The translations under genes and the position numbers were made by a program. A stretch of DNA of 64,000 nt from an uncultured bacterium (GTDB taxonomy: Bacteria > Bacillota_I > Bacilli_A > RF39 > UBA660), in NCBI GenBank assembly GCA_948433885.1, contig CAOJEC010000003.1, positions 5,184 to 69,183 on the forward strand. The letters are read 5' to 3'. Below, piece by piece: positions 1 through 46,666 of the stretch. The notes beneath the pieces were generated by a model. It saw only the letters and a program-made list of their open reading frames with translations. It was not told the origin of the DNA and ran no database searches. The stretch's first letter is position 1; each line of letters begins with the position of its first letter.

Positions 1-902
1 AAAACCCTCTTGTTGGTTTAGTTGTTTGTGGGTATTGTGGTAATAATATGACAAGACGACCATATTATATAAGAAAAGACGCAAAACCTACAGTAAAACG
101 AGTTTACGAAGTTGATAAGACTAAGTTAAGATTATTGCTTCGAGAACATAAAGGAGACTATAGTCTAAACGATATAGCTAGAGCTTTAAAAGTATCTAAA
201 TGCTGCGTAGATCACTGGTTCGCTAGTAATGACGATAAATTTACTATGCCATACGCTAATAAATGGGAAGATTTAAAGAAATTATTAAATATAGAAACTA
301 CGGAGTTTGATAAAGCAGTAACTACATTAGAAGAAAGCATAACGCCAGTACACGTCGATACTCTTATGTGTAGTCGACCTAGATGTAAATGTGTATCAAG
401 TGATTTAGAACTTGTAGAAACAAAAATATTACAAACATTAAAAATAATAAAAGAAGATTATAAAAAATATGTTGATAATTACGAAGAAGAAGTAAAAAAA
501 GAAATAAGAGATAATAAGGAAATTATACAAGTGATAGATAATGAAATCGACAAAGTCAATTCACAAATTGAAAAAGCGTGTGAATTAGTAGAGGCTGGAG
601 CTTATACTAAAGAGCTTTTTAAAAAAAGAATAGATGTTTTAAATAATCAATTAGAAGCACTAATAAATCAAAAACAAGAGTTACCTAACGCAAATAATAT
701 AACACAAGAATTTAATAATAAAAAGAAAGCAATACCTATTTTAGAAGACATTTTGAGTAAATATGCGCCTGAAATGACGGCCGAAGAAAAAAACGAGTTA
801 TTATCTACAATAATCAAAAAAGTTATATATAAAAAAGACCGTGGAGGCCGTTATTTAAAGGAAAATTTCAGTATTGATATTATTTTATTGCCCTTTGACT
901 GA
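1..902 (+). CDS. Large serine recombinase, C-terminal part (5' end lies outside the window)
   Basis: The frame is open from nt 3 (NPLVGLVVCGYCGNNM...). It has a zinc-ribbon CxxC pair, a second Cys cluster (CSRPRCKC), then a long heptad-rich coiled coil (KEDYKKYVDNYEEEVKKEIRDNKEI...), which is typical of LSR C-terminal domains. The segment is very AT-rich compared with the flanking DNA. Confidence 0.8.
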   Translation, partial: NPLVGLVVCGYCGNNMTRRPYYIRKDAKPTVKRVYEVDKTKLRLLLREHKGDYSLNDIARALKVSKCCVDHWFASNDDKFTMPYANKWEDLKKLLNIETTEFDKAVTTLEESITPVHVDTLMCSRPRCKCVSSDLELVETKILQTLKIIKEDYKKYVDNYEEEVKKEIRDNKEIIQVIDNEIDKVNSQIEKACELVEAGAYTKELFKKRIDVLNNQLEALINQKQELPNANNITQEFNNKKKAIPILEDILSKYAPEMTAEEKNELLSTIIKKVIYKKDRGGRYLKENFSIDIILLPFD

Positions 903-917
903 TAACATAATCGTAAA
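1..917. mobile_element. Right end of an integrated element (prophage/ICE-like) carrying the serine recombinase. The junction with host DNA is at about 903-925.
   Basis: Composition shifts abruptly from ~25% GC to ~45-48% GC immediately after the recombinase stop codon (900-902). Host-side homology to CotJC begins at about 918-921. Confidence 0.6.
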
Positions 918-1295
918 AATGAATTCGGTCACGCTGAAATGATCGGTGCGATGGTACACATGTTGACTAAAGATGCCACGTTGAAAGAAATGGAAGAAGC
1001 CGGCCTCGATGGCATGTATGCAGAACACGGTAAAGGTATCTATCCTTCCGATGCCAACGGCGTTCCTTTCTCGGCGATGACTTTCGCTTCCACGGGAGAC
1101 TATCTTGCGGACATTTCTGAAGATATGGCAGCCGAAGAAAAAGCTCGTGCTGCTTACGAAAGACTCATCGACATGGCAGAAGATCCTGCTTTGATCGAGC
1201 CGCTTCTCTTCTTGAGACAAAGAGAAATAGTTCATTTTCACCGTTTTAAAGAATTGTACGATTATTATAAAAAAGAGTACAAACAAAAAAAATAG
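906..1295 (+). pseudogene. cotJC: Manganese-catalase family spore coat protein CotJC, 3' two-thirds only (gene split by the element)
   Basis: The translation NEFGHAEMIGAMVHMLTKDAT...AAEEKARAAYERLIDMAEDP...FLRQREIVHFHRFKEL matches my memory of B. subtilis CotJC from about residue 60 (EEFAHLEMIATMVYKLTKDAT...AAEEKARATYQWLI...FLREREIVHSMRF). An in-frame stop sits at 903-905. About 60 N-terminal residues are missing. Confidence 0.75.
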
Positions 1296-1310
1296 AAGTG
1301 AATAATTACT

Positions 1311-1337
1311 AAAAATCGAAGGAAACCTTCGATTTTT
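1311..1337 (+). terminator. Rho-independent terminator after the cotJC fragment
   Basis: Hairpin atcgaagg-aaa-ccttcgat followed by a T-run. Confidence 0.6.
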
Positions 1338-1367
1338 AAATTTTCTATATCTTCTTTTCTCGATCGG

Positions 1368-1376
1368 TGATATAAT
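1368..1376 (+). promoter_or_regulatory. Extended -10 promoter element (TGaTATAAT) for the downstream gene
   Basis: tgatataat lies 22 nt upstream of the ATG at 1398. I found no good -35. Confidence 0.4.
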
Positions 1377-1397
1377 CTAGAGCGCTTGGAGGTTTTT

Positions 1398-2654
1398 ATG
1401 AGTCAAAACACTGCACAATTACCAATCGAACCTATTATACAAAATGATGAATTTGCCATATTTTGTACGGGAGATCTAGAAGATATAAAAGATGAATTAC
1501 TGAATCAACTATCATTTACCAAAATGAAATTGTTAAAATTCTTCGGCCTAAATACTTTTCCAAAAGTTAATATATATTTATTCGATAAAAATGTGTTTTT
1601 TAAATCACTTCCTTCATTCGATAGCTACTCTTCTCCAATGATCAATCACTCTTACAAAGTAAAATCTATTTCGAAAATAAAAGGAGTTTTATGTCACGAA
1701 CTTACTCACCTCGTTTACCGACAAATTTGGGAAGACTACTATCAAAGTCCCATATGGTTAGACGAAGGTTTGGCGCTTTTCTTCTCGGGCGAAAAAGACC
1801 ACATTACTACTGATTTTAAAAGATTTAAAAGTTGGTATTTAGAAAGAATAGTAGCATCTTCTAAAACGATACCCAAGATGGAGTTTTTGAACAAAAGAGG
1901 AACCAACTTTGGAGAATTTGTCGACGGAAAATCCAATACTTATAATGGATACGATATTTCTTTTATTCTAGTTTATTACTTGAGGAAACAATGCGACAAT
2001 TTTTCGGAAATGTTGTACGACGAACGAAGTATCGAAAAATTGAACGAACACATCCTAGAAGAATGTATAGCCTTTTTCAATCGCTTATTTCGTGTCGATG
2101 ACATTAAAGAGTCTTTTATAGATATCGAAACGCCAGATGAATTGATGGGCTATCTAGATAAAAATATCGTCTATGGTTGGTTAGATCGACAAGGAAATTT
2201 TCACAAAGATGTGGAAGTGACTTTTAGAGAAAACTATAGAACAGGTTCCTTAGAACAAATACTACAGTCCAAAGTAGGAACTTGTATCGAGCAAGCGAAA
2301 TTGATCAAAACTTTCTTCGATAAAATCGGTTTAGAAAGTAAAATATTCTGCCGAAGAAAATACGAAGACGAAGAAACACCAAAAGAAAAAACGAAGATGC
2401 ACTGCTTCGTGTTGTTCTCTCGCGATGACAAATGGTATCACTTTGAACATTCTAATGTGGCTGCAAGAGGTATTCACGAGTATTCTACTTTAGAAGAAGC
2501 TCTACAGGCCGAAAATTCCAAACGTCATCCGAGCGATGTACGAGTGCTCACCGAAATACCCGATATTCCATCAGGATTATCTTTCGAAGAGTTCAACTGC
2601 TACGTAAATTCTTTCGATCCTTACGACATGGCTCCTAAGATAAGTACAATTTGA
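1398..2654 (+). CDS. Two-domain putative protease: N-terminal MA-clan zinc peptidase-like domain plus C-terminal transglutaminase-like cysteine protease domain
   Basis: GGAGG lies 5 nt upstream of the ATG at 1398. The N-terminal half has HELTH ... WLDEGLALFF (HExxH plus a downstream Glu). The C-terminal half has GTCIEQAKL ... MHCFVLF ... WYHFEHS, a Cys/His pattern like transglutaminase-like cores. Confidence 0.55.
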   Translation: MSQNTAQLPIEPIIQNDEFAIFCTGDLEDIKDELLNQLSFTKMKLLKFFGLNTFPKVNIYLFDKNVFFKSLPSFDSYSSPMINHSYKVKSISKIKGVLCHELTHLVYRQIWEDYYQSPIWLDEGLALFFSGEKDHITTDFKRFKSWYLERIVASSKTIPKMEFLNKRGTNFGEFVDGKSNTYNGYDISFILVYYLRKQCDNFSEMLYDERSIEKLNEHILEECIAFFNRLFRVDDIKESFIDIETPDELMGYLDKNIVYGWLDRQGNFHKDVEVTFRENYRTGSLEQILQSKVGTCIEQAKLIKTFFDKIGLESKIFCRRKYEDEETPKEKTKMHCFVLFSRDDKWYHFEHSNVAARGIHEYSTLEEALQAENSKRHPSDVRVLTEIPDIPSGLSFEEFNCYVNSFDPYDMAPKISTI

Positions 2655-2735
2655 ATAAAACTCCCTTAGATAAGTAAACCTCGTTTTACTTTTTTTATTT
2701 TATATGCTAAAATTGACCACGAGAGGAGACGACCT

Positions 2736-3677
2736 ATGACTATCGTTTTTAAATTGAGTGATAACTTAAAAAGAGAAGTAATCGAGCATTATAAAGATAC
2801 TGCAAAACCTTCGCATCCGCCCTATTCGGTATTTCAAAGTGAAGATTGTGGTACAGTAGTAACATTATACGAATCGGGCAAGATCATGTTCCAAGGTGTC
2901 GGTGCAGACATCGACTACGCATTGTGGCGTGATCGCGAAGCGTTTTTGAACAGGAGAAATATCGATTCGGAACTTGCCAAAAAGGATGCCAAAGACCAAA
3001 AGAAAAAAGATGAGTTGAACGACTTGACATACAAATATGCGAGCACCGTAGGCTCCGATGAAGTTGGTACGGGAGATTACTTCGGTCCGATCGTCGTCAC
3101 CGCATCTTTCGTAAGTGTAGATAATATTAGCAAAATCGAAAGTTTAGGAGTCAGAGACTCGAAGAAGATAACTGATGAAAAAATCTTATCGATTGCACCT
3201 AAACTCATCAAAATGGTTCCGTATGTAAGTTACACCTTATCTCCTTCCGACTATAATCGCGTCGGTATTACGAACATGAACAAAGTAAAAGCCATATTGC
3301 ACAACAAAGTTTTAAATCTTCTTTTAAAGAAAGAAAGCTTCGAATATGACTACATCGTCGTCGATCAATTCTCACTCGTATCCAAATACTTCGAACACAT
3401 CAAAGAAGCACCTGAAAAAGTTACTAATATAGATTTTACGACTCACGCTGAAGATAAGTGCTTAAGTGTCGCGGTATCTAGTATCATAAGTAGATATATA
3501 TTCTTAGGTGAGATGAAAAAGATGAGCGAAAAATATGGAATGACAGTTCCTAAAGGAGCCGGTGCACAAGTTGACATCTTCGGTAAAGAATTTGTTCAAA
3601 AATTCGGCGAAGAGGAGTTGTCGAAAGCCGCTAAACTAAACTTCAAAAATACGGACAAAATAAAGAGGTCGTTGTAG
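2736..3677 (+). CDS. rnhC: Ribonuclease HIII
   Basis: The length, the N-terminal DUF3378-like domain and the GSDEVGTGDYFGPIVV catalytic motif fit RNase HIII. An RBS (gagaggag) is present. Confidence 0.9.
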   Translation: MTIVFKLSDNLKREVIEHYKDTAKPSHPPYSVFQSEDCGTVVTLYESGKIMFQGVGADIDYALWRDREAFLNRRNIDSELAKKDAKDQKKKDELNDLTYKYASTVGSDEVGTGDYFGPIVVTASFVSVDNISKIESLGVRDSKKITDEKILSIAPKLIKMVPYVSYTLSPSDYNRVGITNMNKVKAILHNKVLNLLLKKESFEYDYIVVDQFSLVSKYFEHIKEAPEKVTNIDFTTHAEDKCLSVAVSSIISRYIFLGEMKKMSEKYGMTVPKGAGAQVDIFGKEFVQKFGEEELSKAAKLNFKNTDKIKRSL

Positions 3678-3686
3678 ACCTCTTTT
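3663..3686. terminator. Bidirectional hairpin between convergent rnhC and holA
   Basis: aagaggtc-gttgta-gacctctt with flanking A and T runs. It overlaps both stop codons. Confidence 0.55.
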
Positions 3687-4623
3687 ACAATTCGAGTAAA
3701 AACTTTCTCAATTCATCATACCCTAAATTATCTTCACTTATGAGTTTCAAATTCATATTGCACAAATATAAAATAAGCGACTCCAATTTTTCTAAAGAAT
3801 ATTTCCCACTGGCATCTCTCAACAATTTAACTCGATAAGGGTGCATATTACCCATCTCTTTACTTATTTGATCGTTCGTATATTTCTTTTGAGCAAGCAG
3901 TTTTATGTTATATAATGCTTCGTATTCCTTGGCGATCATGACGACTAAAGGAACCAACTCCATTTTTGTAACCTCAGCATCGTCGATCATCTTCAAAGCT
4001 TTCTTTAAATCCATATTTATTATGGCATCCTTGAGACCAAAAGAGTCAGTCATATTGTAATTAGAAACATGCTCTTCGACATCTTGAAGGGTCACAATGG
4101 TGTTCTTCCCTTTGATTTTTTTTAACTTTTCGAATTCGTTTTTTGCTATGTCGTAATTGCCAGCACATTTCTCACAAAAAGCATCGAGAACATTTTTGGT
4201 CATTCCATAACCACTTGTCCGAAGTGTTTCTCCAAATATTTTAGCCAACTCGTAAGATTTACTTATTATGGGAGTTTCGATCACTGTCAATTTGGAAATT
4301 ATCGTTTTGAAAGTACTTTTAGCACTCGCCTTTTCATTGCTCGTAAATATCAATGTCGTATTTTCATTTGGCTCGGACAAATAAGCCTCCAAACTTGCCA
4401 AATCTTTTTCTCCATCTTTCTTTTTACTTCCATTTAAGACTTCAAAATTTCTTATGATGACTATCTTCTCCTCATCGAACATAGATCCATAACCGACATC
4501 TTCTAGTACACTTTTGAGCTCGATCTCCTCTAACGAATAAGAACTTGCCGGGCGTCCACATAAAATCTTCTCAATTTCGAGATCCACCAAATTAAAGCTG
4601 CTTCCGTATATTAAATAGTTCAT
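3685..4623 (-). CDS. holA: DNA polymerase III delta subunit
   Basis: The size is right, the N-terminus is MNYLIYG..., and it sits in the conserved position downstream of comEC as in Bacillus. The start moves to the ATG at 4623, preceded by GGGGAG. Confidence 0.8.
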   Translation of the reverse strand: MNYLIYGSSFNLVDLEIEKILCGRPASSYSLEEIELKSVLEDVGYGSMFDEEKIVIIRNFEVLNGSKKKDGEKDLASLEAYLSEPNENTTLIFTSNEKASAKSTFKTIISKLTVIETPIISKSYELAKIFGETLRTSGYGMTKNVLDAFCEKCAGNYDIAKNEFEKLKKIKGKNTIVTLQDVEEHVSNYNMTDSFGLKDAIINMDLKKALKMIDDAEVTKMELVPLVVMIAKEYEALYNIKLLAQKKYTNDQISKEMGNMHPYRVKLLRDASGKYSLEKLESLILYLCNMNLKLISEDNLGYDELRKFLLEL

Positions 4624-45967: not shown

Positions 45968-46666
45968 ATGTTTGGTTTATTATTATCTTTTCTAAAAGGC
46001 CTTTCTCTCTTCACAGGATCTTATTCTATTAAAGTTTTCCCCGATCCACTTTCGAAAGAAGAAGAAAACAAATGCATCGAAGGATTGCTCGCCAATGATG
46101 AAGCTTCTCGAAACAAACTGATCGAGCACAATTTACGACTCGTAGCCCATATAGTAAAAAAATATGACGCAAAAGGAACGATGACCGACGACCTCATTTC
46201 GATAGGAACTATAGGGCTAATAAAAGGTATCGATTCTTTCAAACCGGCTAAAAATACGAAACTGACGACGTATGTTGCTCGCTGCATCCAAAACGAAATT
46301 CTCATGTACTATCGAGCAAACAAAAAGACAGCTAAAGATGTCAGTTTAAACGATTACATCGGTTTCGACAAAGAAGGAAACGAAGTGAGTCTTTTAGAAG
46401 TGCTACGTGATGACGAATACGATATTTTAGAAAATCTTCATCTACAAGAATTGCTCGATAAACTGCAAGAATACGTATCCATATTGAATCCTCGCGAACG
46501 ATCTATCATAGAAAATCGCTATGGTCTAGGAGACCGTGAAGAGAAAACTCAAAACGAAATAGCTGAGAATTTACACATTTCGAGAAGTTATGTTTCTCGC
46601 ATAGAAAAAAGAGCTCTTACAAAGATAATGAAAGAGTTCTTGAAAGATAATCCTCAAATGAAATGA
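45968..46666 (+). CDS. sigK: Sporulation sigma factor SigK (pro-sigma-K), uninterrupted
   Basis: FPDPLSKEEE...LIEHNLRLVAHIVKKY...DLISIGTIGLIKGIDSF...TYVARCIQNEILMYYR matches my memory of B. subtilis SigK closely. An N-terminal pro-sequence is present. Confidence 0.85.
   Translation: MFGLLLSFLKGLSLFTGSYSIKVFPDPLSKEEENKCIEGLLANDEASRNKLIEHNLRLVAHIVKKYDAKGTMTDDLISIGTIGLIKGIDSFKPAKNTKLTTYVARCIQNEILMYYRANKKTAKDVSLNDYIGFDKEGNEVSLLEVLRDDEYDILENLHLQELLDKLQEYVSILNPRERSIIENRYGLGDREEKTQNEIAENLHISRSYVSRIEKRALTKIMKEFLKDNPQMK

Follow-up and report, generated by a model that had tools for sequence, protein, structure and literature searches.

A probable attachment junction of a temperate siphovirus family inside the spore coat gene cotJC of an uncultured bacterium

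We analysed a stretch of 64,000 nt from an uncultured bacterium of the RF39 lineage (contig CAOJEC010000003.1, positions 5,184 to 69,183; hereafter the window), which opens with the end of a large serine recombinase (LSR; integrase) gene and continues directly into a truncated cotJC, the gene of a CotJC-type manganese catalase. The 3' part of the LSR gene occupies 1..902 on the plus strand (approximately residues 424-722 of 722) and closes with a TGA at 900-902, immediately followed by a TAA at 903-905; 18 nt after the LSR stop, cotJC resumes at Glu65 and runs to its own stop (921..1295, plus strand, residues 65-188). An earlier note on this DNA had described cotJC as split by an element whose LSR gene ends at the junction, with a jump in GC content at the break, and both observations hold: GC content is 0.287 over positions 1-920, the terminal 920 nt being all that the window contains of the element, and 0.437 over 921-1295 (0.24-0.28 versus 0.475-0.51 in 200-nt windows). 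The same note let the homology start at N-E-F-G-H-A-E-M, around residue 60. Its recognition of a C-terminal CotJC fragment stands, but the starting point shifts: identity with the intact gene of a conspecific strain begins exactly at G921, that is at Glu65 (E-F-G-H-A-E-M), and the Asn codon before it is phage DNA. Positions 906-1292, in the same frame as the LSR, match the Pfam family Mn_catalase (PF05067) over profile positions 65-189 (E 1e-27), and the cotJC fragment is, over residues 65-188, 100% identical to the intact 188-aa gene of L001 (L-numbers are our labels for the loci and contigs compared). PF05067 matches both the fragment and the intact gene, while the NCBIfam manganese catalase equivalog scores 103 bits against a cutoff of 350, as expected because the CotJC subfamily is short. 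On L001, cotJC lies directly downstream of cotJB, and the two genes overlap at ATGTAATG.

The identity of the recombinase rests on its translation, on Pfam and on its similarity to the LSR of locus L009. Positions 3-899 encode the 299 C-terminal residues. Their translation shows a CxxC ... CxxxxC pair and a long, heptad-rich tail; Pfam matches a zinc ribbon at aa 2-21 (Zn_ribbon_recom, 23.1 bits, just under the cutoff of 25.3), after which a long coiled-coil-like tail follows. The protein matches the PHROG integrase family phrog_95 and is 96% identical in amino acids to residues 424-722 of the 722-aa L009 LSR, and the phage DNA of the window is 96-97% identical to L022, L008 and L009. The L009 protein contains Resolvase, LysM, Recombinase and Zn-ribbon domains, with PF00239 at aa 26-143 (E 8e-7, above cutoff) and PF07508 (Recombinase) at aa 316-407. 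Its closest solved structure is SprA, the integrase of SPbeta, with which aa 25-227 align (E 4e-29), the alignment being limited to the catalytic domain. The integrase gene (L009:8732-10897) is unusually large, with products of 718-722 aa; a LysM-like insert lies between the catalytic and recombinase domains (around aa 229-300), and the zinc ribbon is split by a helix-turn-helix (HTH)-like insert of about 110 aa (CGYCG ... CSRPRCKC).

When the sequences following the recombinase stops are aligned, a conserved phage arm, CTGATAA(C/G)-N14, is followed by GA and then by host cotJC. The window can accordingly be divided into the parts of a predicted attR attachment site on the plus strand: the P arm (phage half-site) CTGATAACATAATCGTAAAAAT at 899..920, which overlaps the integrase stop codon; the predicted crossover dinucleotide GA at 921..922, corresponding to bases 1-2 of the Glu65 codon; and the B' arm (bacterial half-site) at 923..946, inside cotJC and coding for (E)-F-G-H-A-E-M-I. 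The P arm is homologous to the left arms of attP in L017 and L023 and in the attP reconstructed from contig 223, which is described below. The free attP sites of L017 and L023 measure 46 bp, with arms CTGATAA(C/G)...GTTATCAG; in L017 the ends are inverted (CTGATAAG ... GTTATCAG) and the centre falls at GA (positions 23-24). The B' arm of the window is identical to attB of L001, L002, L007 and L058. The attB target encodes T-E-E-(F/L)-x-H-x-E, a stretch that we take to be the metal-ligand motif of manganese catalases, and across hosts the conservation of B' is confined to the codon positions fixed by E-x-(G/A)-H-x-E-M.

Both ends of such an element could be observed in a relative. Contig 223, a 41.6-kb IMG/VR contig rebuilt from L081, L025 and L076, holds an attL (...GCAACCGAA[GA]ATTAACACAATTAAGTTATCAT) and an attR (...CAACTTAAATGTACTAAT[GA]AATGGCACATC), with 30,405 bp from GA to GA and both cotJC halves on one contig. 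The 5' fragment that the earlier note had suggested looking for at the far end of the element is present there, together with cotJB, in a contiguous prophage of 30.4 kb. Joining the two halves in silico at GA, as was also proposed, gives an in-frame CotJC of 192 aa that aligns without gaps with the intact protein at 59% identity. Prediction of the attachment sites likewise succeeded, with attR being read from the window and attL from this related prophage. The reconstructed attP is symmetric about GA (17 of 24 arm positions match), and the core that it has in common with attB consists of GAA only.

Insertion occurs in both polarities. At sites with a GA centre (the window, L009-L018 and L081) the LSR lies beside the 3' half of cotJC, whereas at sites with a TC centre (L019, L020 and L091-L095) it is the 5' fragment of cotJC that borders on an LSR of this family, encoded on the opposite strand, and the junction consists of the P arm, TC and the reverse complement of the host left half. 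The free attP of L023 has a TC centre and a P arm with a single base difference from that of L091. Serine integrases are known to have their insertion polarity determined by the central dinucleotide. Given that GA or TC tracks the orientation, comparison of these sites shows the central dinucleotide of attP as the apparent determinant of polarity, here as natural variation.

The recombinase fragment retrieved 14 loci from species-representative genomes, all of them metagenome-assembled genomes (MAGs) of uncultured gut Firmicutes labelled as Bacilli, Clostridia or 'Firmicutes bacterium CAG:582'. At ten of the 14, a cotJC fragment that begins at residue 65 (62 in one alignment) comes within about 20-30 nt after the recombinase stop, and the CotJC proteins of these ten hosts are 51-69% identical to that of the window. 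The same architecture recurs in more than 15 independent assemblies of different species, among them the circular chromosome L018 (OZ007038.1, a complete MAG chromosome of 1,538,818 bp), and more than a dozen host species harbour the family in cotJC, inserted in one or the other orientation. These hosts appear to be gut Firmicutes with small genomes, the only complete one measuring about 1.5 Mb. Phage DNA remains 96-97% identical even between hosts in which the flanking DNA can hardly be aligned, pointing to recent horizontal spread, and the P arm of the window type is joined, base for base, to at least five different host cotJC sequences.

Relatives of the element carry the genes of a complete phage. 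Upstream of the LSR, L009 carries early genes, one variable gene and a pair of HTH genes (cI-like and cro-like) whose divergent sigma-70 promoters are strong. An IMG/VR contig (L024/L066) that is 96.6% identical in DNA to positions 1-920 of the window encodes an HNH protein, the small and large terminase, portal, protease, major capsid, connectors, tail tube (major tail protein) and tape measure; the closest IMG/VR contig (102513, 26.4 kb) is incomplete, ending within the tail-fibre region. Instead of cotJC, L017 and L023 have, after the recombinase stop, a short non-coding site and then, on the opposite strand, genes for endolysin, holin and tail fibres; judging by this layout, both are un-integrated phage genomes of about 30 kb that carry attP. 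The free attP genomes and the structural modules indicate that the family is a complete temperate siphovirus and no skin-like remnant. We therefore abandoned the label 'skin-like' that the earlier note had put forward, in favour of a probably active temperate phage resembling SPbeta, as the relatives have full morphogenesis and lysis genes and free attP forms, and presence varies within the species. The large terminase is at best 73% identical to that of an unannotated faecal phage and about 49% identical to those of Caldibacillus and C. difficile phages. The early operon also contains a SpoVG homologue (L009:5524-5778, L091:15095-15373 and the contig 223 prophage; NF009749, 97 bits, just under the cutoff of 108). 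In related cotJC-integrated phages, an RVT_1 reverse transcriptase overlaps a Phage_tail_APC gene beside the tail-fibre region (L096:9350-10868, L100:12001-13555 and L101:11924-13478), an arrangement that may represent a diversity-generating retroelement. Apparent frameshifts in the LSR and cotJC 3' fragment of L021 were considered as signs of prophage decay and rejected, the breaks being runs of 10 N.

Within the species of the window, the site is not always occupied. The exact protein of the neighbouring gene was found on seven public contigs. Empty sites, with uninterrupted cotJB-cotJC and a catalase of 188 aa, are present in L001, L002, L007 and the NCBI MAG contig L058, the last of which was reached through a 98%-identical CotJB. 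The junction of the window recurs in L004 and L006, which are independent assemblies. On L005 (L005:1-432) a distantly related serine recombinase, whose tail is 34-39% identical, ends at the same crossover base of cotJC; this junction reads ..GTACAGAA[GA]ATTCGG. Host DNA corresponding to positions 921-3700 is 100% identical across the empty, the occupied and the other-phage contigs. Identical host DNA with differing occupancy implies that occupancy of the site changes on a very recent timescale, and the other element at the same base of L005, next to identical host DNA, suggests that at least two phage lineages compete for attB within one species. The Logan contigs L004 and L006 start 30 and 25 nt to the left of the crossover, which fits a branch of a k=31 de Bruijn graph at the att site, with the phage arm occurring in more than one context in those samples. 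These contig ends were not used as evidence of excision, because the same phage arm in another host gives an equal signature.

Truncated cotJC genes are also widespread. With CotJC residues 1-65 as query, about 120 clusters of N-terminal fragments of 63-111 aa were retrieved. Most of these stub clusters diverge right after ...TE-E, in tail classes that include LTQ*, LIQ*, SVC* and LVH*; a minority are ordinary CotJC sequences truncated where the contig stops. Two of the abundant stubs, found in 32 and 80 collection blocks, have an attL and, after it, endolysin, holin and tail genes that belong to this phage type. For annotation this means that cotJC 5' stubs of gut MAGs ending in ...TE-E, often of 68 aa, are phage junctions, not pseudogenes or assembly errors, and the same applies to cotJC 3' fragments of about 118-124 aa. 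A right phage arm predicted from the P arm of the window by symmetry (E-F-L-R-x-C-Y-Q) pointed to a class of 95-aa stubs. This class was rejected as the attL of the window type because it consists of reverse-orientation insertions that read through the antisense of the LSR end. Exact searches with the P arm in viral and metagenome contigs recovered only further attR junctions, and no attL or attP of the window type was found.

We consider it very probable that positions 1-946 of the window hold the attR junction at which a temperate siphovirus of about 30 kb, inserted by its LSR, meets cotJC. In this reading an LSR of about 720 aa recombined a quasi-palindromic attP of 46 bp with attB inside cotJC, with the crossover at the GA of Glu65, and left a 5' stub of about 65 codons beside the phage lysis genes (attL, beyond the window) and the 3' fragment after the integrase stop (attR); phages with a GA centre lie with the integrase beside the 3' half, and those with a TC centre with the integrase beside the 5' half. 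Since the target is a protein-constrained motif, the same phage could enter cotJC in hosts with DNA too diverged to align, which may explain its entry across hosts. Integration should be reversible, with precise excision restoring an intact gene, given that the site is empty, holds this phage or holds another one in conspecific contigs whose host DNA is identical. The LSR gene has no strong sigma-70 promoter of its own and lies downstream of the cI-like repressor gene on the same strand, so the integrase is probably made in lysogens. Excision would be gated by a putative recombination directionality factor (RDF), as in other LSR phages.

Several points weigh against this interpretation. The catalytic domain of the LSR copy at this locus falls outside the window, and the completeness, attL and attP of its phage are deduced from relatives with 96-97% identity and from more distant members of the family. 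The crossover was placed by symmetry and by the 3-nt core GAA, which would also allow AA rather than GA. The hosts are all uncultured MAGs or metagenome contigs, whose sporulation and phage activity are deduced. Additionally, no match to an RDF or excisionase was found with PHROGs among 10 small early proteins, and the unannotated early proteins, compared as a concatenate with all PDB sequences including SprB/YotN, had no similarity to solved RDFs; these factors are too diverse for a failed similarity search to count as absence.

Regulatory sequences were compared both at cotJ and at the integrase gene. A CATAnnnTA motif lies about 20-25 nt before the cotJB start in seven of seven distinct hosts (L001:8860-8891, L059, L076, L091, L094, L096 and L100), against a background of 1 in 57 host ORFs (open reading frames); the surrounding sequence is unconserved. 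CATAnnnTA is the -10 pattern of the B. subtilis mother-cell sigma factors, and cotJ of B. subtilis is expressed in the mother cell. Its conservation suggests by analogy that cotJ is probably a mother-cell operon in these hosts too, with a -10 of the sigmaE/sigmaK type, and the motif could help to define sporulation promoters in these uncultured lineages. The integrase gene has, behind a conserved palindrome and some 30 nt ahead of the LSR start, an invariant CATAnnnTT in which the central bases vary; the last base of this motif departs from CATAnnnTA, no -35 is recognisable, and the motif has a background frequency of 3-5%. A scan with regular expressions for the sigmaE/K/F/G consensus sequences over about 181 kb of phage DNA from 15 loci gave no enrichment over shuffled sequence and no motif recurring before a conserved small ORF, the consensus sequences being those of B. 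subtilis, which may not transfer to these hosts.

The leader of about 130 nt on the 5' side of the integrase start (L009:8590-8731) is itself nearly invariant, although the LSRs are only about 60% identical. In an alignment of L009 with its homologues in L010-L023, L080, L081 and L091 (alignment A2), it comprises a GC-rich hairpin, an invariant AAGCTATCACACT and a 14-bp inverted repeat, CTATAATTGTATAG-GTTTTT-CTATAC(G/A)ATTATAG. Both arms of this repeat carry a one-base insertion in L021, L023 and L091, and the two insertions match; a third CTATAAT copy, which could pair with the right arm, abuts the LSR ATG. The leader is a candidate operator or RNA switch. Rfam held no family matching it, and RNAalifold detected no covariation in this nearly invariant region.

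A further question regards what the insertion means for the host, and in particular whether excision is tied to sporulation. In the simplest case the phage uses cotJC as a conserved, non-vegetative target and inactivates it, excises on lytic induction only, and leaves the spores of lysogens without this CotJC. We lean slightly towards this plain lysogenic disruption and rank it as somewhat more likely than sporulation-coupled excision. It agrees with the complete equipment of the phage, its horizontal spread and its standard cI/cro switch, with the variable occupancy of the site within the species, and with the finding of neither an enrichment of sporulation promoters nor an RDF under such a promoter. 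It also agrees with the general habit of LSR phages, which often target conserved motifs inside genes, such as A118 in comK. Moreover, mutants of C. difficile in catalases of the CotJC family had no major coat defect, according to a passage of PMC11222575 that cites Permpoonpattana 2013. On the other hand, the published prophages in mother-cell genes favour coupled excision, and the mother-cell-type cotJ promoter together with the weak CATAnnnTT before the integrase leaves room for it. Alternatively, therefore, the phage might act like SPbeta: an RDF and/or integrase driven by a sporulation sigma factor would excise the prophage in the mother cell and restore cotJC, while the forespore keeps it. 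We regard such a switch as plausible but less probable than plain disruption; it is an extension of the best explanation for the junction, not a replacement. The conserved -10 of the cotJ operon, the restoration of the ORF that precise excision would bring, the relation of the LSR to SprA and the invariant CATAnnnTT before the LSR start all speak for it. So do the intact ORFs of every cotJC 3' fragment in lysogens, and skin, SPbeta, vfbin, vrin and gin, all of which are excised in sporulating cells where examined (PMC4191935, PMC5595907, PMC5025042). Yet intact 3' fragments are uninformative for recently acquired phages, no RDF was detected by PHROGs or by comparison with solved RDFs including SprB, and sporulation sigma motifs are no commoner than in shuffled sequence over the 181 kb of phage DNA. 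The LSR-leader motif has the shortcomings given above, both orientations occur, which leaves no fixed transcriptional coupling to cotJ, and cotJC is perhaps dispensable, with little selection for its restoration. Slightly more tentative is the proposal that this gut-siphovirus family uses cotJC as a reversible developmental switch, with the integrase and/or RDF expressed from a mother-cell-type CATAnnnTT promoter. The prophage would then leave the mother-cell chromosome, restoring the coat catalase, and stay in the forespore, and the natural GA/TC flips of attP would show that this functions in either orientation.

Of the element itself, 920 nt are visible, so decay elsewhere would be possible, and the IMG/VR contig of its closest relative is incomplete at 26.4 kb. 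Nonetheless, it is improbable that the copy in the window is no more than a defective, skin-like intervening element, devoid of its former phage functions: its visible integrase ORF is intact and 96-97% identical in DNA to copies in several other hosts, which argues for recent mobility, its relatives have complete structural modules and free attP forms, and the site is empty in conspecifics with identical flanks. An artificial joining of a phage end to a cotJC fragment during assembly or binning is conceivable in principle, as the source is probably a metagenome-assembled genome and the Logan contigs of the occupied site break 25-30 nt into the phage arm. However, the identical junction in the independent samples L004 and L006, its counterparts in more than 15 assemblies of different species including the circular L018, and the one contig with both junctions make a chimera negligibly likely.

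Elements with serine recombinases in mother-cell genes are an established class, comprising skin in sigK, SPbeta in spsM, vfbin, vrin, gin and yin (PMC4191935, PMC5595907, PMC5025042, PMC10747680). SPbeta in spsM is, by analogy, the better comparison than skin: it is likewise a temperate phage inserted by an LSR in a mother-cell gene whose ORF is restored by precise excision (PMC4191935, PMC5499854). As in SPbeta, the integrase is probably expressed in the lysogen, and SprA is its closest solved structure. The cotJC phages differ from SPbeta in their target and size (about 30 kb against 134 kb) and in their LSR, whose roughly 720 aa include a LysM-like insert and a split zinc ribbon and align with SprA over the catalytic domain only; in addition, neither a SprB homologue nor a sporulation promoter was found in the cotJC phages searched. 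Skin in sigK (B. subtilis, with SpoIVCA; C. difficile, with the RDF CD1234) is similar in that an LSR element splits a mother-cell gene and carries the recombinase at one end. Skin is, however, a defective remnant with programmed excision, whereas the cotJC phage family is complete and variably present, and sigK of the window is intact. The Listeria phages A118 and phi10403S in comK are known for active lysogeny, which affects a competence regulator and phagosome escape. They resemble the present family as LSR phages in a conserved host gene that is dispensable for growth and that reversible excision could switch; here the target concerns the spore coat, not competence or phagosome escape, and there is no sequence relation beyond the LSR superfamily. 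Gin (gerE), vfbin (spoVFB), vrin (spoVR) and yin (yabG) are further serine-recombinase elements in mother-cell genes (PMC5595907, PMC4191935, PMC10747680), although mostly defective or non-phage, from cultured Bacillus or Clostridium, and with a rearrangement shown or studied experimentally.

Interruption of cotJC has itself been noted before. A one-line note by Galperin et al. (bioRxiv 10.1101/2022.02.25.481979) mentions a skin-like element in cotJC of Laceyella sacchari, likewise a spore-former with a mobile element in this gene, and cotJC is among the frequently used integration genes according to Abe et al. 2013, as cited in bioRxiv 10.1101/2021.11.22.469490. An experimental study of cotJC rearrangement was not found in the literature searched. 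The kind of event is therefore known. What is added to these brief bioinformatic notes on cultured Bacilli is a defined phage family, together with its att sites, its crossover position, its two classes of polarity and its broad occurrence among uncultured hosts from the gut. Lysogeny at cotJC varies between otherwise identical strains and may affect the composition of the spore coat. If excision were tied to sporulation, the known range of SPbeta-type active lysogeny would come to include a coat enzyme gene and uncultured spore-formers that abound in the gut, and the phage family concerned is common in metagenomes. Furthermore, the natural set of LSR, attP and attB, with one arm, at least five diverged attB sites and two polarities, is useful for studies of serine-integrase specificity and for tools.

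Elsewhere in the window, sigK (45968-46663) runs uninterrupted over its full length (NF004471, 303 bits against a cutoff of 252, profile positions 8-232 of 235), in agreement with the earlier note. The presence of sigK in this host and of cotJB-cotJC in related hosts indicates that at least part of the sporulation gene set is kept. Downstream of the cotJC fragment, a hairpin followed by a T-run (TCGAAGG-AAA-CCTTCGA-TTTTT, 1316..1337, plus strand) can be read from the sequence. It is likely the terminator of the cotJ operon, and it also occurs in L001, after the intact cotJC. The gene directly 3' of cotJC (1386-2654) is present in empty and occupied strains alike; its product of 418-422 aa has weak, below-cutoff matches to Peptidase_MA_2 and to a transglutaminase core.

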